From: Candidatus Marinacidobacterium sp.
GTDB lineage: Bacteria; Acidobacteriota; Vicinamibacteria; Marinacidobacterales; Marinacidobacteraceae
Direction: 5' to 3'
Assembly: GCA_965220965.1 (NCBI GenBank)
Contig: OZ244852.1
Span: 928,001-992,000, forward strand
Length of the DNA: 64,000 bases
The position numbers and the translations under genes were made by a program. Shown here piece after piece: positions 9,908 through 22,431 of this stretch. The notes beneath the pieces were generated by a model. That model ran no database searches, was not told the DNA's origin, and saw only the letters and a list, made by a program, of their open reading frames with translations. Each line of letters begins with the position of its first letter. The first letter of the stretch is position 1.

Positions 9908-11268
9908 GCCGGGACGCCGGGATCCGTCTTGGGGTCTTCGAAGGGATTGCGGCGTGGCGGGACGATCCCCGCCGCCGCGCCGCCCCCGGGGAGGACGCGG
10001 CGAGCGTCGACGGCATCACCGCGTCGATCCTCGACCGGGTCCGGAGGGACGGCGACCAGGCGCTGGTGGAGCTCGCCCGGGAGTTCGACCGCGTCGAGCT
10101 CGATCCCGCGTCCCTGAGGGTCTCCCCGGAGGAGCTGGAGACGCTCGCGGCGGCGGCCAGTCCGGCGGACCGCGATCTGCTGCGCCGCGCCCGCGACCGG
10201 ATCGCCGCCTACCACGAGCCGCAGCGGGAGCGCTCCTACACGCGGGACGTCGGCGATGGCTCCCGACTCGAGTGGCGCGTCCTCCCGCTCAGGGCGGCCG
10301 GGGTCTATGTCCCCGGTGGAGCGGCGGTGTATCCGTCCACCGTGCTGATGAACTCGATTCCGGCGCGGGTGGCGGGCGTGCCGCGGGTGGCGCTCGCGAC
10401 GCCCCCCGGCGCGCTCGAGCGGAGCCCGGCGCTCGCGGCCGCGGTTCAGGCGGCGGGAGTCGACGAGGTCTTCCGCATCGGCGGCGCCCAGGCGATCGCC
10501 GCCTTCGCCTTCGGGACCGGGACCGTGCGACCGGTGGATGTCGTGGTCGGGCCGGGGAACGCCTTCGTCGCCGAAGCCAAGCGTCAGGTGGCCCCCTTCG
10601 TGAGAACCGACGCCTTCGCAGGGCCTTCCGAGGTCGTGGTCGTCGCCGATGCGAGCGCCGAGGCGGATCCCCAGCCGGCCTGGATCGCCGCCGACCTGCT
10701 CGCGCAGGCCGAGCACGGCTCGGGCGAAGAGCGGGCGATCCTCATCACCACGTCCCGGGTCGTGGCGCAGCGGGTGGCCTCCGAGGTCGCGCGCCAGGCC
10801 CGGGACCAGCCGAATCGGGAGACCATCGCCCGAGCGCTCGCCCGACACGGCGCCGCGGTCGTGGTCCGGGCCCTCGCGGAGGCGGTGGATTTCGCTGGCG
10901 AACTGGCGCCGGAGCACCTCGAGGTCTTCACCGCCGACCCGGAGAGCCTCGCGAGCAGGTTCCCGACCGCCGGGGCGGTTCTTCTGGGCCCCCATTCGCC
11001 GGTCGCCATCGGGGACTACGGCGCCGGGCCGAACCACGTGTTGCCGACCGGGGGCGCCGGCCGCTTCGCGTCGCCGCTGTCGGTCGGGGATTTCCTGAAG
11101 CGCCAGAGCCTGATCCGCTACACCCGGAGCACGCTCGAAGCCCAGCGCGAGGACTTCGAGCGCTTCGCGCGGATGGAGGGCTTCGAGGCCCATGCGCGCT
11201 CGATCTCGGTGCGATTCGCCGAAGGTTTGGAGCAGTCGCCCCGCGAGCCCGATCCGGCGGGCGGCTGA
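9904..11268 (+). CDS. hisD: Histidinol dehydrogenase
   Basis: GVYVPGG, YPSTVLM, GGAQAIAA, AGPSE, DLLAQAEH, GDYGAGPNHVLPT. Confidence 0.95.
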   Translation: MSRDAGIRLGVFEGIAAWRDDPRRRAAPGEDAASVDGITASILDRVRRDGDQALVELAREFDRVELDPASLRVSPEELETLAAAASPADRDLLRRARDRIAAYHEPQRERSYTRDVGDGSRLEWRVLPLRAAGVYVPGGAAVYPSTVLMNSIPARVAGVPRVALATPPGALERSPALAAAVQAAGVDEVFRIGGAQAIAAFAFGTGTVRPVDVVVGPGNAFVAEAKRQVAPFVRTDAFAGPSEVVVVADASAEADPQPAWIAADLLAQAEHGSGEERAILITTSRVVAQRVASEVARQARDQPNRETIARALARHGAAVVVRALAEAVDFAGELAPEHLEVFTADPESLASRFPTAGAVLLGPHSPVAIGDYGAGPNHVLPTGGAGRFASPLSVGDFLKRQSLIRYTRSTLEAQREDFERFARMEGFEAHARSISVRFAEGLEQSPREPDPAGG

Positions 11269-11300
11269 GCGCATCGCTTCGCTACCATCCCCCGACTCTC

Positions 11301-12428
11301 ATGAAACCCGTCCCCCTCGAGGTCGTCCGCCCCGAAGTCATGGAGTTGGCGCCCGATGTGGGCTCCCGCCCCGACGTGCCGATCCACCTCGACTGGAACG
11401 AGAGCCGCTGGCCGCTTCCGGCCGATCTGCTGGAGGAGATGGCGGAGGCGACGTCGGGCGCCGACCCCCGACCCTATCCGGACCGCGGCTATCCGGCGGT
11501 CCGCGAGGCGATCGCCGGGCTCAGCGGTTGGGATCCCGAGGGCGTCGTGTTCGGCAATGGCGGCGACGACATGCTGCAGTTGTCGGGGCTCGCGCTCACC
11601 GGGCCGGGCCGCTCGGCGCTCTACCCGTCGCCCGGTTTCTCCATGTACCCGTGGGCGCTCCGGCTGGCCGGGGCCGAAGCGCGGCCCGTCGCGCTGGGGG
11701 AGGGTCTGGGGTACGACCTGAGCGAACTCCATCGCCGGATCGCCGAGGAACGGCCGGCGCTGGTCTTCGTCACCGCGCCGCATAACCCCACCGGCGAGCT
11801 GCTCCCCCTCGAGGCGCTGCGGCGTCTCGCCGAGGCCGCTCCCGGGTTCCTCCTGATCGATGAGGCCTACCACGAGTTCGCCGCCTGGAACGCCCGCTCG
11901 CTGCTCGACGATTTCGGCAACGTCCTGATCCTCCGCACGTTCTCCAAGGCGATGGCGATGGCGGGGGCGCGGCTGGGCTACCTGCTCGCGCGCCCGGAGG
12001 CGGCGCACGCGATGCGGCGGGCGCAACCGCCGTTCCCGGTCGGGGTCTACACCTGCCGGGCGGCGGCGGCGGCGATGCGGCGCCGGAGTCTGCTCCTCGA
12101 TCTGACCCGGCGCATCACCGCCGAGCGCGACTGGCTGTCGGGGCGGCTGTCGGCGATCTCCGATGTGGAGGTCTGGCCCTCGCAGACCAATTTCCTGCTG
12201 TTCCGCACTCCGATGGACAGCCCGGCGCTCCGTCGCCGACTCCTGGGACACGGGGTGTCGCTGCGCGACTTCTCCGCGCACCCGCGCCTCGCCGGCACCC
12301 TCCGGGTCACGGTTGGAGTCCGCGAGGAGAATCTCGTCTTCCTGAAGGGCCTCGAGGAGAGCCTCGCCACTCCGCTGAGCGCCGCCGAACGGGATGCGGT
12401 GGCCGCGCCCGAGTCGCCGGTCGCCTGA
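11301..12428 (+). CDS. hisC: Histidinol-phosphate aminotransferase
   Basis: LDWNE, GNGGDD, PHNPTG, IDEAY, LRTFSKA, RLGY; ATG at 11301. Confidence 0.92.
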   Translation: MKPVPLEVVRPEVMELAPDVGSRPDVPIHLDWNESRWPLPADLLEEMAEATSGADPRPYPDRGYPAVREAIAGLSGWDPEGVVFGNGGDDMLQLSGLALTGPGRSALYPSPGFSMYPWALRLAGAEARPVALGEGLGYDLSELHRRIAEERPALVFVTAPHNPTGELLPLEALRRLAEAAPGFLLIDEAYHEFAAWNARSLLDDFGNVLILRTFSKAMAMAGARLGYLLARPEAAHAMRRAQPPFPVGVYTCRAAAAAMRRRSLLLDLTRRITAERDWLSGRLSAISDVEVWPSQTNFLLFRTPMDSPALRRRLLGHGVSLRDFSAHPRLAGTLRVTVGVREENLVFLKGLEESLATPLSAAERDAVAAPESPVA

Positions 12429-12435
12429 GGCCGCC

Positions 12436-13041
12436 TTGTCCGAGTCCAGCCGGCCCCGCCGGGCGACGCGCTCCCGCGCGACCCGCGAGACCCGCATCGC
12501 GGTCACGGTGGATCTCGATCCGGTCGCGCCCTCCTCGCGCATCGCGACCGGCATCGGCTTCTTCGATCACATGCTGGAGGCGTTCGCCCGCCACGCGGGA
12601 ATCGACCTCACGGTGGACGCAGAGGGCGATCTCCACGTGGATCCCCACCACACGATGGAGGATGTCGGGCTGACGCTCGGCGACTGCCTCGCCGAGGCGC
12701 TCGGCGATCTGGGCGGGGTGCGGCGCTTCGGGTCGGCGCTGATCCCGCTGGACGAGGCGCTCTCGCGCGTGGTCGTGGATCTGTGCGGCCGGCCGTTTCT
12801 CGCCTGGCGGGTCCGGTTTCCGGCGGCGCGGGTGGGCGAGGCTCCGACCGAGCTCTTCGAGGACTTCTTTCGCGCGCTGACCGACCGCGCCCGGATGACG
12901 GTCCACGTCGACGGGTTGACGGGTCGCAACAGCCATCACATCGCCGAGACGGTGTTCAAGGCGTTTGCCCGGGCGTTCGCCGAGGCGAAGGGCGTGGTCG
13001 GGTCGGAGGTCCCCTCGACCAAGGGGACCCTTTCTGTCTGA
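12436..13041 (+). CDS. hisB: Imidazoleglycerol-phosphate dehydratase
   Basis: TGIGFFDHML, GDLHVDPHHTMED, PLDEAL, NSHHIAE, PSTKG; TTG start inferred. Confidence 0.95.
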   Translation: MSESSRPRRATRSRATRETRIAVTVDLDPVAPSSRIATGIGFFDHMLEAFARHAGIDLTVDAEGDLHVDPHHTMEDVGLTLGDCLAEALGDLGGVRRFGSALIPLDEALSRVVVDLCGRPFLAWRVRFPAARVGEAPTELFEDFFRALTDRARMTVHVDGLTGRNSHHIAETVFKAFARAFAEAKGVVGSEVPSTKGTLSV

Positions 13042-13663
13042 TCGGCCGGCTGACGGGTCGGCGGTCGTCGTGGTGGACCACGGCGCCGGAAACCTCGCCA
13101 GCGTGACGCGGGCGCTTCGCCGCGAGGGGGCGGAGGCGGACCTGACATCGGACCCGGAACGGGTGGCGGCGGCCCGCCGGCTCGTCCTTCCCGGCGACGG
13201 GCACTTCGGCGAGGCGATGCTCTCGCTGCGCCGACGCTCCCTCGAGGAGCCGGTCCGGCGGGCGGTTGCGGCGGGGGCGCGGCTGCTCGGGATCTGCGTG
13301 GGTCTCCAGATGCTCTTTCCGGAGAGCGATGAAGCTCCGGGCGTTCCCGGGCTCGGGCTGCTTCCCGGGAGGGTGCGCCGGTTCCGGGGGGCTCAGCGAG
13401 TGCCCCACATCGGCTGGAACCAGCTCAAGGACCTCGACGGCCACCCGCTCTTCCGTGGAGTCGGGGAGGGGAGCTACGCCTACTTCCTCCATTCGTTCCA
13501 CGCGGACCCGGCGGAGGCGAACGACCGCCTCGCGGTGACGGACTACGGGGTCCGGTTCGCGTCGGCCGCCGGCCGGGGCCGGGTGCTCGGCATCCAGTTC
13601 CACCCGGAGAAGAGCGCCCGCCTGGGCGCCCGGGTCCTGCGGAACTTCCTGGCGTTGGCGTGA
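13034..13663 (+). CDS. hisH: Imidazole glycerol phosphate synthase glutaminase subunit
   Basis: VVDHGAGNLASV, GICVGLQ, VPHIGWN, QFHPEKS; start uncertain (CTG at 13034 overlapping hisB stop, or a later GTG). Confidence 0.93.
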   Translation: MSDRPADGSAVVVVDHGAGNLASVTRALRREGAEADLTSDPERVAAARRLVLPGDGHFGEAMLSLRRRSLEEPVRRAVAAGARLLGICVGLQMLFPESDEAPGVPGLGLLPGRVRRFRGAQRVPHIGWNQLKDLDGHPLFRGVGEGSYAYFLHSFHADPAEANDRLAVTDYGVRFASAAGRGRVLGIQFHPEKSARLGARVLRNFLALA

Positions 13664-14436
13664 GCCCCGAGCCTCCCCGGATCGAACCGATCCCGGCGGT
13701 GGATCTCTCCGCCGGTCGGGTCGTGCGGCTCCTCCGGGGCGAGCGGGATCAGGAAACCGTCTACGGCGACGACCCCCTGGAGGCGGCGGAGGGCTTCGCC
13801 GCCGAGGGCGCGCGCTGGCTTCACGTGGTGGACCTCGACGCCGCGTTTGGCGACGGAGGCAACCGGAAAGCCATCCGCCGGCTGCTGCGGCGCTCCCGGC
13901 TCCGGGTCCAGGTCGCCGGGGGAGTCCGGAGCGTCGAGGCCTACCGGGAGCTGCGGGACGCGGGCGCGGCGCGGGTCGTGTTCGGCACGGTCGCGGTCGA
14001 GACCCCGGAGGTCGTGGAAGAGGCGATTCGGCGCGACGCCGAGGGGGTCGCGGTGGCGCTCGACGTGCGGGGCGGGAGGCTTCAGACCCGGGGCTGGGTC
14101 GATGGCCCGGCGGATGGCGCAGCGTCCGACGTCCGCGAGAGCCCGGAGGACGCCGCCCGGCGCTGGGGGGCGCGCGGGGCGGGGGCGCTCATCCACACCG
14201 GCATCGAGCGGGACGGGACGATGGATGGACCCGACATCGATGCGGCGTTCCGGCTCGCCCTCGCGTCGGGGCTCCCGACGATCATCGCCGGCGGGGTGGG
14301 AAGCGCGGCGCACCTCGAGGCGATCCGGGCCAGAAGCGCCGAAGAGCCTCGGGCCCGCCTCGCCGGAGTCATCCTCGGGCGGGCGCTCTACGAGGGGCGG
14401 CTGAGACTCGGGGACGCGTTCGCGGCGCTCGGCTGA
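13660..14436 (+). CDS. hisA: ProFAR isomerase HisA
   Basis: IPAVDL, VVRLLRGE, LHVVDLDAA, QVAGGVRS, RDGTMDGP, GRALYEG. Confidence 0.93.
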   Translation: MSPEPPRIEPIPAVDLSAGRVVRLLRGERDQETVYGDDPLEAAEGFAAEGARWLHVVDLDAAFGDGGNRKAIRRLLRRSRLRVQVAGGVRSVEAYRELRDAGAARVVFGTVAVETPEVVEEAIRRDAEGVAVALDVRGGRLQTRGWVDGPADGAASDVRESPEDAARRWGARGAGALIHTGIERDGTMDGPDIDAAFRLALASGLPTIIAGGVGSAAHLEAIRARSAEEPRARLAGVILGRALYEGRLRLGDAFAALG

Positions 14437-15089
14437 GACGCCGCCCCGGTATCCGGGGGAAAGCGCCGGCGCAGTTCGGCCGCCACCCGGGTCGGGGGAA
14501 CGCCCCGGCTCTGGAACAGCACGAGGAGGTGGTAGAGCAGATCCGCCGCCTCGGCGACCAGCTCCCCTTCGTCGCCGGCGACGCCGGCGAGCGCAACCTC
14601 GACGCCTTCCTCCCCCACTTTCTGGGCGATGCGCGACGCCCCGGCGCTCAGGAGCCGCGCGGTGTAGGAGCTGTCGGGAGGGGCGTCGGCCCGGCGGGCG
14701 ACGATTTCCGCGAGCGCGTCCAGCACCCCATCCAGGCCGGGGGCGCTGTCGCCGCCGCCCTCCCGGTCGAAGCAGGAGATCTCGCCGGTGTGGCAAGTCG
14801 GGCCGGCGGGTCGGGCGCGGACCAGGAGCGCATCTGCGTCGCAGTCGAGGTCGAGGGAGACGAGGTGGAGGTGATTGCCCGATGTCTCGCCCTTCAGCCA
14901 GAGCCGGTTCCGGCTGCGCGAAAAGAAGTGGACCCGTCCGGCCTCCATCGTTTGTTCGAGCGCCTCCCGGTTCATCCATCCCAGCATGAGGACCCGGCCG
15001 GTGGAGGCGTTCTGGATGATGGCCGGCGCCAGCCCGGCCTCGTTCCAGCGGACCTGGTCGGCCAGCGGGCCTTCGGTGGAAGGGTTCAT
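14388..15089 (-). CDS. hisIE: Bifunctional phosphoribosyl-AMP cyclohydrolase / phosphoribosyl-ATP pyrophosphatase
   Basis: [57 protein letters not shown]. Confidence 0.95.
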
Positions 15090-15874
15090 GCGGCCGCGAG
15101 TCCGTTTTCGTCTTCCGGCGGACGAACGGGAATGCCGCGCTTCGCGAGGTAGCGCTTCGTCTCGACGATCGTGTGGATGCTCCGGTGGTAGATCGAGGCG
15201 GCGAGCGCCGCGCTCGCGCCGGTCTGCTCGAACACGTCGGCGATGTGCGAGAGCGCGCCGACTCCTCCCGAGGCGATGACCGGAACCTGGACCGCGTCGG
15301 CCGCCTGCCGCACCTGATCGAGGTCGTACCCCTGCCGGGTGCCGTCCCGGTCCATGCTCGTGAGCAAAACCTCTCCCGCCCCCAGTTCCTCGCCGCGCCG
15401 GATCCACTCGATCGCGTCCAGCCCGGTCGGCTGTCTTCCACCCGCGGTGTAGACCTCGAAACCGCCGTCTCCGGTGCGGCGGGCGTCCACCGCGAGGACC
15501 AGACACTGCGACCCGAACTGGCGGGACGCCTCCCGCAGGAGTTCCGGCCGGCGGACCGCCGCGCTGTTCACCGAAACCTTGTCGGCGCCGGCGCGCAGCA
15601 GCGAGTCCATGTCGCCCACGCTGCGGACCCCGCCGCCGACGGTGAAGGGGATCGTGAGCGCCTCCGCGACGGCGCGCACCGTGCGGAGCGCGGTGCCGCG
15701 CTCCTCCCAGGTGGCGGTGATGTCCAGCAGGCAGAGCTCGTCGGCCTGTCCGGCGTCGTAGGCCACGGCGCTCGTAACCGGATCCCCCTCATCGGTGAGA
15801 TCCACGAAGCGCACCCCCTTGACGACCCGGCCGTCCTTGACGTCGAGGCAGGGGATGATCCGCCGCGCCAGCAC
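15086..15874 (-). CDS. hisF: Imidazole glycerol phosphate synthase cyclase subunit
   Basis: [46 protein letters not shown]. Confidence 0.97.
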
Positions 15875-15947
15875 GGCGGCAGTGTACGCCTCGGCAGCGG
15901 CCTGACGGAAAGCTCCGGACGCCGCCTACCTCGAGGTGTCAGAACCC

Positions 15948-17707: not shown

Positions 17708-18154
17708 TCACCCAGGCGTCGATTGCGGCGTCGGTGGATCGGCGGGCGGCTCGTCGACGCACTCCGGGCAGTCCCCGGTCCGGCAGATCCGGGCGGTCCA
17801 GACCAGAGCGCCGGCGAGGGTCAGACTGCCGGCGGCGGAGGAGAAGTTCTCCGGTAGCGGTTCGAGCCAGCCGGCGAGGGAGGCGGCCCAAAGCGCCGCT
17901 CCCCCCAGGAAGGTGAGGACCAGGGCCGCGTTCCTGCGAGCCGGGCCCAGGCCGAGCGTCACCGCGCCGAGAAGGACGGTTCCGGCCCAGACGGCCTGCT
18001 CGACGCCTTCGGAAAGCGCGAGCGCTGGCGCCGCCAGGACCAGCAGGGGCGTGACCGCACAGTGGACGCCGCACCAGATGGCGGCGCCGGCCGCCAGGCG
18101 CGACCCGGACACCAGATACGCGTTCGGGGGATTGATTGCGAGAGATTTGTTCAC
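17708..18154 (-). CDS. MerC-domain membrane protein (putative metal transporter)
   Basis: AAIWCGVHCAVTPLLV resembles the MerC CxxHC first helix; about 4 TM helices; C-terminal CRTGDCPEC; GTG start inferred. Confidence 0.7.
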   Translation of the reverse strand: MNKSLAINPPNAYLVSGSRLAAGAAIWCGVHCAVTPLLVLAAPALALSEGVEQAVWAGTVLLGAVTLGLGPARRNAALVLTFLGGAALWAASLAGWLEPLPENFSSAAGSLTLAGALVWTARICRTGDCPECVDEPPADPPTPQSTPG

Positions 18155-18212
18155 TACAGCCGTACCTGCCCCGGCGTCCCGATGGATCTCCGGGGGCGGG
18201 GCGAGTCGTCCG

Positions 18213-18236
18213 GCGCCGGAGTGCGGACTCCGGCGC
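18213..18236 (-). promoter_or_regulatory. Intergenic stem-loop between RAPP leader and MerC-like gene
   Basis: Perfect 10-bp stem GCGCCGGAGT/ACTCCGGCGC with 4-nt loop. Confidence 0.5.
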
Positions 18237-18291
18237 AGCCGTCGCGCCCGATGAAAGTGACCCGGTGGCTCGCGCTGCGGCCGGCCCGGGA

Positions 18292-18660
18292 CTATGCCAG
18301 CGAGAGCGACTGAGCCGGCGGCGCCCGGGGCCGGATCCCGAACCGGGCGTCTGCGGCGGTGTGACCGGAGGTCGCCCGCAGCTCTACACGAATCGCCCGG
18401 AGCGCCGGTGGCTGATCGAGGGCCGAGCGCTTCAGGGTGGCGGCGGGGGCGGCTCCCTGAGCGCAGAGGACGCACACCGCGTGGGCGTACTCGACCCCTC
18501 CGGAGTGGTCCTCGCCGTAGCCGGGCCGCTGGACGGCGCTCTGGTCGAGGTGTTCGTGGGTCGCCTCGACAAAGGACAGCGCAGAGGTCGCCACGAGCTG
18601 CATCAGGAGCGAAGCAGAGGCTCCTCTCCGGATCCAGCGGGGACTCCTCCAGCGGGCCAT
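18292..18660 (-). CDS. DUF2946/CruR/CutF-like regulatory leader peptide (CxxC plus RAPP)
   Basis: Hydrophobic N-terminal signal-like stretch, HEH/His cluster, CVLC, RPRAPP 7 residues before the stop. Confidence 0.7.
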   Translation of the reverse strand: MARWRSPRWIRRGASASLLMQLVATSALSFVEATHEHLDQSAVQRPGYGEDHSGGVEYAHAVCVLCAQGAAPAATLKRSALDQPPALRAIRVELRATSGHTAADARFGIRPRAPPAQSLSLA

Positions 18661-18756
18661 CGCAGGCAGGATACCAGCGGGGGCGCCCGGTCAGGAGGAC
18701 GGAACGAGGTCCCGCCGGCATGGAGAGAGGGGCCTCGCGCCCTAGACTCCGGCGCG

Positions 18757-19497
18757 ATGAGCGAGCTTCCGCTGCACCCGGGCGCGGGCGCGCCTCCGGC
18801 GGGGCCGGGTCAGGAGCTGCGCGCCCGACGGGACCGGCTGGTGGCCCGGATCGGGCAGGCCCGGTTCGACGCCGGCGCTCTCGCGCTTCGGGTCGAGGCC
18901 GCCTGCGCCACGATGGAACTCACCGGGGCGTCCCCGCCCGAGGACGAGGTCGCCCGGGCGCGAAGCGGGGACATTCGGGGCGCGCCGTCGCTCGCCGCCC
19001 CCCTCGGGGCGATCGCGCGGATGTCGCAGGCGGCGCCCGGACGGGACCCGGATGCCCGGCTGCTCGGCGAGATCCACCAGATCGCCACCGGGTCAGCCGA
19101 GGAGTCGGGTTTCCGCTCCACCCAGATCGACGCGCAGTTCGACGGCGCCAGCCTGTCGCCGCCGCAGACGATCCCCATCCGGCTGGGCGACCTCCTCGGC
19201 TGGATCGGGGGGCAGAGCGGCCGGGATCTGGAAACGGCGCCGCGCGCAGCGCTGTTCTTCGCCCGGTTTCTGGAAATCTCGCCGTTTGCGCGAGCCAACT
19301 TCCGGGTGGCGCACCTGATGCTCACGTTCTTCGCCCTTGCCGACGGACAGCCGCCGATCTGGTTCGAGGTCGGGGACGCCACCGGGATCCGGTCGGATGT
19401 CTCGCGGGCGTTCCGGTTCGACACCGCGCCGCTGACCGCCCGGATCGAGGCGGCCCTCGCGCGGTCGCTGGATCGGGTGGCCAGCGCGGACGAGTAG
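18757..19497 (+). CDS. Fic/Fido-domain protein with degenerate active-site motif
   Basis: LLGEIHQIA, GFRSTQ, FLEISPFARANFRVAHL (Fic motif without the catalytic His). Confidence 0.7.
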   Translation: MSELPLHPGAGAPPAGPGQELRARRDRLVARIGQARFDAGALALRVEAACATMELTGASPPEDEVARARSGDIRGAPSLAAPLGAIARMSQAAPGRDPDARLLGEIHQIATGSAEESGFRSTQIDAQFDGASLSPPQTIPIRLGDLLGWIGGQSGRDLETAPRAALFFARFLEISPFARANFRVAHLMLTFFALADGQPPIWFEVGDATGIRSDVSRAFRFDTAPLTARIEAALARSLDRVASADE

Positions 19498-21245: not shown

Positions 21246-21297
21246 GAGGTAGGATCGGTCGTCCCGTGGCGCTCGTGGTGGCGCGCCGGTGGTCCCC

Positions 21298-22431
21298 ATG
21301 AGCCCTCCCCGCTACTCCCCGGAGCGGTTTCCTCCGTCCTCTCCTGATTGGGCCGGCCTTCTGCCGTGGCTCGGCCGCGCCCACCGGGCCATCGCACAGT
21401 ATGAGGGCGTCCTCGCTGGCGTTCCGAACCCGCAGATCCTCCTCTCGCCGCTCGCCGGCCAGGAGGCGGTCGTGTCGAGCCGGATCGAGGGGACCCGTTC
21501 ATCGCTGAGGGAGGTCCTGGCTCTGGACTCCACGGGGAGTGGTGATATCGGCCCGGATCGGGCGCCGCCGGATGTCCAGGAAGTCCTGAACTACCGGCTC
21601 GCGCTCCTGACCGCGGAGGGCATGCTCGAGAAACTGCCGCTCTCCCAGCGCGTGATCCGGCGCGCTCACGCCGTCCTGATGAAGGGGGTGCGGGGTGACA
21701 CGGCCGCGCCGGGGGAGTACCGGAGGATCCAGAACTGGATCGGAGCGCCCAACTCCACGGAGGCGACGGCGACTTTCGTGCCCTGTCCCCCCCAGCACAT
21801 TCCGGAGGCCATGGACGCCTGGGAGCGCTATCTCCACTCGGATACACCGGACGAGCTCTTCCAGTTGGCGGTCCTCCATGTCTGGTTCGAAGCCATCCAC
21901 CCGTTCCTGGACGGAAACGGCCGACTCGGACGCCTCATGATGCCGCTGTTCCTGGTCGCGAGGGGGATGCTGGTCCGGCCGAACCTCTACCTCAGCGAGT
22001 ATCTGGAGCGTTATCGGAGCGAGTACTACCGGCGCCTGCTGTTGGCGCAGAGCGGCGGCGACTGGCGCCCCTGGATGCGCTACTTCCTGACAGGGATCGA
22101 GCAGCAGGCCAACGCCAATGCGGAGAAGGCCCGCAACATCATGGAACTCCATGAGGAGGGTAAGACACGGGTCTCGCGGCTCCTGCGCTCGCAGTACGCG
22201 TCCGCGGCGCTGGACATGCTCTTCCGCAGCCCGGTGTTCCGCAGTTCGGACTTCCGCAGACACTCGGGAGCGCCTCGGCCGACGGCGATGCGGTTCCTGC
22301 GCGTGCTGCGGCGGGAGGGGATGCTCGAGGAACTCGTTGCCCCACGAGGCAACCGACCGGCCCTCCTGTGGTTCCCGGAGCTGATCGAGATCGCGCAACG
22401 CCCCTCGGACTTCGGACCGGTTCCTCCCTGA
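21298..22431 (+). CDS. Fic family protein (class II, DUF4172-type N-terminus, C-terminal HTH-like)
   Basis: Canonical HPFLDGNGRLGR; inhibitory SSRIEG motif; PGEYRRIQNWIG. Confidence 0.93.
   Translation: MSPPRYSPERFPPSSPDWAGLLPWLGRAHRAIAQYEGVLAGVPNPQILLSPLAGQEAVVSSRIEGTRSSLREVLALDSTGSGDIGPDRAPPDVQEVLNYRLALLTAEGMLEKLPLSQRVIRRAHAVLMKGVRGDTAAPGEYRRIQNWIGAPNSTEATATFVPCPPQHIPEAMDAWERYLHSDTPDELFQLAVLHVWFEAIHPFLDGNGRLGRLMMPLFLVARGMLVRPNLYLSEYLERYRSEYYRRLLLAQSGGDWRPWMRYFLTGIEQQANANAEKARNIMELHEEGKTRVSRLLRSQYASAALDMLFRSPVFRSSDFRRHSGAPRPTAMRFLRVLRREGMLEELVAPRGNRPALLWFPELIEIAQRPSDFGPVPP

Follow-up and report, generated by a model that had tools for sequence, protein, structure and literature searches.

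Why does a gene for a MerC-domain membrane protein, lying outside any mer operon, stand directly behind a small reading frame that resembles the arrest leaders CruR and CutF? The locus that raises this question lies in a 64,000-nucleotide stretch of Candidatus Marinacidobacterium sp. DNA, here called the window, and its features are collected in Table 1. A preliminary description had proposed a CruR/CutF-type CxxC/RAPP leader directly 5′ of a MerC-like gene outside any mer operon, and this layout holds. The 122-aa frame with HEH35-37, EDH50-52, AH59-60, CVLC63-66 and RAPP, the 137-nt spacer with its perfect 10-bp hairpin, and the next protein with CGVHC and CRTGDCPEC, followed by an M28 peptidase, were all found in place (Pfam MerC and M28 for the last two). 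A CCCCGG (18195-18190)/CCGGGG (18174-18169) stem, said to cover the Shine–Dalgarno (SD) region of merC, exists as well, but it ends just 5′ of the AGGT core and abuts it. The leader is the first gene of its unit, with a Fic gene (Pfam) diverging upstream and the spacer and the PF03203 gene downstream. The window sequence is present without differences in two DNA runs, one possibly its source, and no RNA holder of it is listed.

Two Fic-type genes lie near the cassette, one confirmed by Pfam (18763-19497) and one recognized by motif only (21289-22431). Beside the M28 gene, histidine biosynthesis genes fill positions 11100-15900 in two facing blocks, hisC/B/H/A on the forward and hisF/IE on the reverse strand, an ordinary arrangement.

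Table 1. Features of the leader-merC locus, in positions of the window.
Feature	Position	Strand	Remarks
Leader ORF, DUF2946/CruR-like	18660-18292	(-)	122 aa; both motifs kept in orthologues
Extended -10 promoter, TG-n-TATCCT, predicted	18661..18676	(-)	end 7 nt 5′ of ATG
Signal-peptide-like N-terminus, residues 1-33	18562..18660	(-)	basic start, hydrophobic stretch, V-E-A predicted cleavage site
Predicted metal site H35, H37, D51, H52, H60, C63-V-L-C66	18463..18558	(-)	
RAPP motif	18316..18327	(-)	45 residues past CxxC
Spacer hairpin H1	18261..18290	(-)	96% of cells paired, 18 rows (helices 2-3)
Spacer hairpin H2	18199..18249	(-)	core is the 10-bp hairpin 18213-18236; 88% and 97% paired
Spacer hairpin H3 (18195-18169), then decayed SD core AGGT	18164..18195	(-)	85% paired
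MerC-domain (PF03203) four-helix membrane protein, CxxHC subtype	17708..18154	(-)	148 aa; GTG start at 18154
M28 peptidase	17616-16042	same strand as merC	Pfam 107.5 bits

The small frame is very probably a translated arrest leader. Profile searches support a kinship with DUF2946 (PF11162), with a match of 22.9 bits (E 1.6e-4) over model positions 22-117 of 117, just under the Pfam cut-off of 23.7. Eight of nine aligned leader members match DUF2946 at E<=1, and the window scores best. By its sequence, the 122-aa ORF is a divergent leader of the DUF2946/CruR type, a member in all but the Pfam threshold. A single-sequence search with the leader returned only the leader itself, and a profile found seven cluster representatives; a metagenome scan with the leader alignment gave one locus, a false match. 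The proposed conservation of RAPP and CxxC is borne out in full, as H35, H37, C63, C66 (CxLC) and RAPP are kept in 20 of 20 rows of orthologous leaders, as is the CxxC-RAPP interval, free of indels. Across 19 distinct orthologues and the window the invariant positions are R11, L18, Q21, L28, E32, A33, H35, H37, C63, L65, C66, R91 and RAPP. The best 15-residue hydropathy at the N-terminus is 1.69 in the window and 1.77-2.59 in the orthologues. An AF2 model, weak overall (pLDDT 54), has one confident helix at residues 7-34.

CruR (Bp2923) of Bordetella pertussis, a DUF2946/PF11162 protein, carries its CxxC 45 residues before RAPP according to passages of PMC9426467, and its arrest and toeprint are reported in passages of PMC12992588. 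The window leader shares a predicted export-like N-terminus, the spacing of exactly 45 residues, a long spacer and the place at the head of the unit. It differs in scoring under the Pfam cut-off, in an invariant HxH right after the signal and in having seven residues rather than three between RAPP and the stop. The target here is a MerC-domain membrane protein, whereas that of CruR is a TonB receptor. A small secretory ORF with a C-terminal RAPP before a metal gene also resembles the RAPP/RGPP uORF class as passages of PMC12992588 present it. CutF of Rhodobacter capsulatus stalls when copper binds and melts a nearby stem-loop, whereupon a detoxifying enzyme is made (PMC9973294; bioRxiv 10.1101/2025.02.05.636593). 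A leader made for export (in the window by prediction), a Cys site, a Pro-rich tail, a downstream ribosome-binding site (RBS) beside a stem-loop and, by prediction in the window, a translational output are common to both. In contrast to CutF, stall site and RBS are here ~160 nt apart, and the target seems to serve the uptake side rather than detoxification.

RAPP plus an export signal is also the layout of Sec/YidC monitors (PMC12992588, in part), and a secretion monitor like ApdA/ApdP would need no metal input. We consider this very improbable, given an invariant His/Cys site at the CruR spacing and the lack of a sec or yidC gene downstream in any leader locus examined, unlike the arrangement of the ApdA/ApdP monitoring substrates.

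A predicted promoter adds to this picture. In most orthologues the ATG lies 7 nt beyond a -35/-10 pair (TTGTAG-17/18-TACCTT-7-ATG or close variants), and the TG-n-TATCCT element of the window lies at the same distance. The transcript is therefore predicted to be leaderless, starting at the ATG of the leader. A consensus promoter/terminator scan of the locus returned no promoter and one terminator, at chance level.

What, then, is the target? It passes the cut-off of PF03203 (38.6 bits against 27.6) and, like the MerC of mer operons, has four predicted helices with a Cys pair in the first. However, this pair is of the form CxxHC, as opposed to the CCA, CAAC and CPAC types of mercury-like rows, and a Cx4Cx2C motif is added at the C-terminus. 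C28, H31, C32, E49, E52, E102, C124, C129 and C132 are invariant in all 84 close homologues that were aligned, out of 120 listed proteins. Such homologues are 58-76% identical and come from Acidobacteriota and Gemmatimonadota records; many of the taxa that bear them are, we assume, sponge symbionts. The AF2 model contains four long helices (pLDDT 60), and Foldseek and VIA-align searches with the weak AF2 models of the locus gave no clear match.

A role in mercury resistance was considered and rejected. The neighbours of merC are Fic, M28 and his genes, so there is no mer operon. A tblastn search of the target against 72,556 plasmids found no match, no MerA in this genome scores over the cut-off, and the target has no match among the NCBIfam MerC models. 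For a wider view we took the best 30 PF03203 loci from each of two 301-genome searches, leaving out our own locus and one unpublished locus. By first-helix motif the 58 loci kept are 39 of the CxxHC type and 19 mercury-like. The MerC-like label thus stands for the domain, and judged by its sequence the target is a CxxHC-type PF03203 protein and not a mercury MerC; the subtype is tied instead to a probable Zur-type operator, described below.

The pairing of leader and target recurs. The orthologous merC set comprises the best 80 of 109 loci (two rows are identical), and in 10 of these a leader with CxxC and RAPP lies directly upstream of merC, nine of them of the window's type. The filter for such leaders (a RAPP/RGPP tail plus CxxC), applied to the opposite strands of the 80 loci, gave six passes. 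A profile of the nine leaders matched in 22 of 53 genomes of one Gemmatimonadota genus, and gave three matches in 201 genomes of the Gemmatimonadota family. Twenty of the 22 matches are intact, one has a broken 5′ end, and in one a deletion has cut the frame short so that its stop overlaps the merC start. Among the intact leaders 17 of 20 stand directly before merC, with spacers of 144-202 nt in 17 orthologues against 137 nt in the window, and three stand before a DUF5916 gene. In the broad PF03203 sample no RAPP leader was found before any of the 58 genes, and the pairing is rare.

A second and dissimilar RAPP leader precedes merC in 6 of 10 loci from the same family, in five of them by way of a short stub ORF, and at least four of the six have a like promoter geometry. 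These leaders (L002-L007) carry the motifs HGEHCVxCH and RAPPA, and a periplasmic binding-protein gene also lies downstream in five of the six. The stub, of 28-58 codons, lies between leader and merC in five of six and looks by eye like the start of a thioredoxin.

The leader can also be lost. It is deleted or truncated in at least four loci, four of which keep its promoter with most or all of the leader gone, and one protein is a leader-merC fusion. Loss of the leader is thus, by these sequences, tolerated in relatives. The handles L018, L023, L062, L067/L124 and P0124 cover the fusion protein and the natural deletions that keep the promoter, which go as far as a merC that starts at the predicted leaderless position.

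The Gemmatimonadota genomes offer a glimpse of how the pair arose. The merC gene is single-copy in 40 of the 53, and in the three genomes where the leader directly heads DUF5916, merC sits behind a palindromic box (3, 3 and 4 mismatches). In 10 of the 17 leader-merC loci, merC is followed by DUF5916, whole or in part. Since merC kept its box where the leader heads DUF5916, and DUF5916 remains behind leader and merC elsewhere, the sequences suggest that the leader first headed the DUF5916 gene and that merC came to lie behind it later. A quick tree built on few columns places all leader-type rows in one 22-row set (SH-aLRT 87), which includes one box row and five rows hand-labelled as deletions, one of these also scoring as a box. 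The box rows fall outside this set and at the base, with weak support. At merC, the leader would have taken the place of the repressor box.

The window cassette shares 70-72% DNA identity over ~900 nt with the Gemmatimonadota loci, and M28 and Fic are not neighbours in genomes of its own genus. On these grounds the leader-merC cassette is likely to have reached this genome by horizontal transfer. The M28 gene lies downstream on the same strand, as had been reported, but it is a chance neighbour; M28 was rejected as a part of the module because it occurs in 0 of 115 loci.

Most orthologues of the target seem to be controlled in a different way, and it is here that zinc enters. We derived the box (TGATAAT-NN-ATTATCA, a 7-2-7 palindrome, allowing <=3 mismatches) from these data, and the loci are kin. 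It is present in 45 of 70 non-leader loci and in none of the 10 leader loci, and both sets of control windows gave 0 of 80. An iron-Fur consensus of the 7-1-7 form was tried and rejected, as only 1 of 70 loci fits it at <=3 mismatches. The box mostly lies 67-75 nt 5′ of the merC start, where it overlaps a TATCAT -10 box. A Fur-family gene directly follows merC in 25 loci, all 25 with the box. Where this gene is parted from merC, box-like half-sites lie between it and a receptor gene in 10 of 12 regions from leader-type genomes. The one box-associated receptor tested has ZnuD as its best PDB match (E 7.8e-29; next match 8.4e-17). Five genomes searched for the box held five sites: two before merC, one before a ZnuD-like receptor and two before ZrgA. 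Within the broad sample, 16 of 39 CxxHC-type genes have the box in front of them, as against 0 of 19 mercury-like genes.

The palindrome also precedes distant CxxHC-type MerC-domain genes in both phyla (L170, L171, L200, L204, L205 and L207, and further L215, L219, L221, L222 and L225). Together with its Fur-family regulator, at ~80% identity and in two phyla, it moves between merC, ZnuD-like and zrgA units (L135-L148, L157, L159).

ZrgA is a zinc-acquisition protein (PMC9817125, in part), and in Caulobacter, where the Zur regulon includes znuK/L/M and znuGHI, Zur represses ABC-2 operons of the kind that a leader heads in this genome (PMC4176598, in part). As in Zur regulons, the box-type orthologues have a candidate operator over the -10 box, beside a Fur-family gene, that is shared with zinc-uptake genes; ZnuD, ZrgA and ABC-2 type targets recur. 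The palindrome letters differ from the proteobacterial Zur motif GTTA-N5-TAAC in the consulted part of PMC4176598, the regulator is unclassified within the Fur family, and passages of PMC4176598 and PMC9817125 name no MerC-domain genes. All Fur-family equivalogs score far below their cut-offs against the regulator; the Zur model is not among its matches, and its best family matches do not name Zur. Given that ZrgA and a ZnuD-like receptor lie behind its remaining sites, the box is probably a Zur-type site, and the regulator is Zur-like by its targets only. With most orthologues behind this palindrome, comparative genomics points to a zinc-starvation gene, and the target is a probable zinc-supply gene.

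This genome has neither a copy of the regulator nor a box. Within the family of the window the regulator occurs in 4 of 28 genomes, and one genome of the same genus has the box, merC and the regulator together. The leader appears to be no simple stand-in for a lost Zur, as the regulator is still encoded elsewhere in 12 of the 17 genomes with a leader-merC pair in the Gemmatimonadota genus.

The choice of metal is tentative. We regard it as fairly likely that control by the leader depends on a metal at all, and zinc as its signal falls a little short of an even call. The leader may instead sense copper (or Ni, Co or Fe), merC having been captured behind a leader tuned to the DUF5916 gene. Both prototypes tested sense copper, the links to DUF5916 in three leader-headed genomes and behind merC in 10 of 17 are as this account would have it, and CopC/CopD and FecB-type genes lie near some merC loci; the FecB/FecCD-type genes behind merC in several loci would fit iron or cobalamin. 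We find this account somewhat unlikely, as the box targets are ZrgA and a ZnuD-like receptor, no CxxHC-type gene is linked to copper chaperones beside leader loci, and two different leaders came to precede merC.

How might a stall at RAPP reach the merC start? The 10-bp hairpin, expected ~0.013 times per 137 nt in this genome, begins ~80 nt past RAPP, and its direct melting by the stalled ribosome was rejected since it lies beyond the footprint. With hairpins beyond the reach of a RAPP-stalled ribosome, the direct melting of CutF is no safe assumption, and a pairing over a longer distance is required. The spacer can be aligned over its whole length, with its three hairpins kept and 85-97% of cells paired in 18 rows. 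Covariation in these hairpins shows no excess (7 pairs, against 8 and 9 in slid controls), the RNAalifold covariation term of the spacer alignment is not favourable, and the fold of the whole region 18130-18340 does not exceed that of shuffled sequences in stability (z -0.71).

Folding predictions offer such a pairing, between the RAPP-coding stretch and the merC ribosome-binding region across the three hairpins. The RAPP codons pair with the RBS region at 7 or more of 8 letters in 16 of the 17 non-window rows, with the SD itself as the partner in 15 cases. In the window this helix is broken (best 5/8), and a 7-nt complement of H3 lies one codon earlier, at Pro111-Arg112. Masking the ribosome footprint eases RBS opening by >1 kcal/mol in 15 of 17 loci. 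Along the ribosome path the opening energy in the window is 12-14.4 kcal/mol before RAPP, 9.4/9.3/8.2 at RAPP and 10.8-12.5 after it, such that a stalled ribosome is predicted to make the region ~3-4 kcal/mol easier to open. The means over 17 loci are 7.6-9.2, 7.2-7.3 and 7.8-9.4 kcal/mol, respectively. When the tail was shuffled, a dip as deep as that of the window arose in 0 of 45 trials; among the 8 of 16 orthologues so treated, four gave 0/18, one gave 2/18 and three had no dip. Five other leaders of this genome show the dip in three cases, most strongly for a ZnuD-like receptor, and none in two, while the six type-B loci show no clear dip in any; starts in both sets were hand-chosen, one being off by a codon. 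Stall as the ON state, through RBS opening, is thus predicted and modestly supported by these models.

The same logic is expected from the target, which is on the uptake side here as in CruR. On balance we lean towards the following reading. The leader would be exported as it is translated, and the ribosome likely stalls at RAPP, as for CruR and the RAPP class, switching merC ON. Metal bound at the His/CxxC site, likeliest zinc, would relieve the stall and switch merC OFF. That the leader gates merC in some way is likely.

RBS gating and zinc, both predicted here, set this leader apart from CruR, for which Rho termination and copper were shown. If the output were transcriptional as in CruR, a stalled ribosome would shield a rut site, and relief by metal would bring about Rho termination in the spacer. 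CruR acts this way (passages of PMC9426467), its spacer of 162 nt is close to the 137 nt here, Rho is encoded in the genome, and the leader holds one C-rich window (21 C, 10 G at 18450). The spacer, however, is tightly folded in all orthologues, the window spacer has no strong C>G patch, and complementarity to the SD is found both in orthologues and in the ZnuD-like leader, which makes a Rho output unlikely in our view.

Could the cassette be a decaying relic of its transfer, with a leader that no longer gates merC or a merC that is barely made? The window has a GTG start and a decayed SD (AGGTAC, against AGGAG/AGGAA with ATG in most orthologues), and it has lost W45 and the next His, both present in most orthologues. 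Its branch in the quick tree is long (0.45), the leader dN/dS is 0.63 between window and orthologues against 0.48 among orthologues, and leaders are naturally deleted among relatives. Yet both frames are intact, and at a dS of ~0.8 no invariant residue has been lost and the two motifs are still 45 residues apart. The merC dN/dS is 0.32 for the window (0.30 among orthologues), the three hairpins persist although their letters have changed, and the folding dip is nowhere clearer than in this locus. Decay of this kind is decidedly unlikely.

RBS gating by a stalled leader may extend beyond merC in this genome. The leader filter passed 15 of 26,544 stop-to-stop frames, six of which were judged leader-like by eye, all with a CxxC-to-R spacing of 42-45. 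They precede three TonB receptors, an outer-membrane 'transporter'-like gene, an ABC-2/DUF3526 operon and the merC-like gene. A PF11162 search of the same genome recovered one further leader only, under the cut-off. One leader-headed receptor has ZnuD as its best solved match (E 3.1e-27); the other two match siderophore/metallophore or B12-type receptors and point to no clear metal. In the ZnuD-like receptor leader (G000:C1:2304900-2305010, L163) the RAPP codons form an 11-nt perfect complement of the receptor SD region, and with the ribosome at the stall site the predicted opening energy is 13 kcal/mol, down from ~25. Judged by these models, this leader is the best test case in the genome.

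The four further leaders, with CxxC and RAPP/RGPP, are at G000:C1:116823, 444767, 1397790 and 2758776, and head two TonB receptors, the outer-membrane 'transporter'-like gene and the ABC-2/DUF3526 operon. DUF5916 genes (L120-L122), the other target of the leader, form an expanded family in this genome (at least 8 tblastn matches).

These loci raise a bolder idea, which we hold to be rather doubtful, that a zinc regulon was rebuilt from stalling leaders in a lineage without the Zur-type repressor. Separate RAPP/RGPP leaders would read zinc and control a ZnuD-like receptor, a ZnuGHI-like ABC-2 operon and a CxxHC MerC-domain protein. This protein would be a zinc transporter that has so far escaped recognition and that passed from repressor to leader control on at least two occasions.

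How much of this is in print? The leader kind itself is already known from CruR and CutF, heading many metal genes. DUF2796 is presumably an older name of ZrgA. TonB receptors, Cu chaperones and DUF2796 all figure in the top-30 downstream list of PMC12992588, as far as it was consulted, and in list form RAPP leaders ahead of zinc genes have thus been published already. MerC is absent from that list and from the searched part of the gene list of the same paper. It is also absent from passages, section 10 and three supplementary files of PMC9426467. In agreement with the preliminary description, which knew of no such pairing, we found no paper on a RAPP leader with a MerC-domain gene; uORF supplements were covered in part and may list it. 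What we did not find in print is the MerC-domain target family and the swap of a repressor box for a RAPP leader.

In summary, this bacterium likely controls a probable zinc-supply gene by a stalling peptide of the known CruR/CutF kind. Both tested members of the leader family sense copper, and the question here is whether a stalling leader can read zinc. Natural loci appear to hold one and the same gene under a repressor box, under either of two RAPP leaders, or with the leader deleted. This is a ready allele series, suited to asking whether a stalling leader can do the job of a repressor. Our results also suggest that mercury resistance is the wrong label for the widespread CxxHC-type 'MerC' proteins, which would instead be proteins of zinc starvation.
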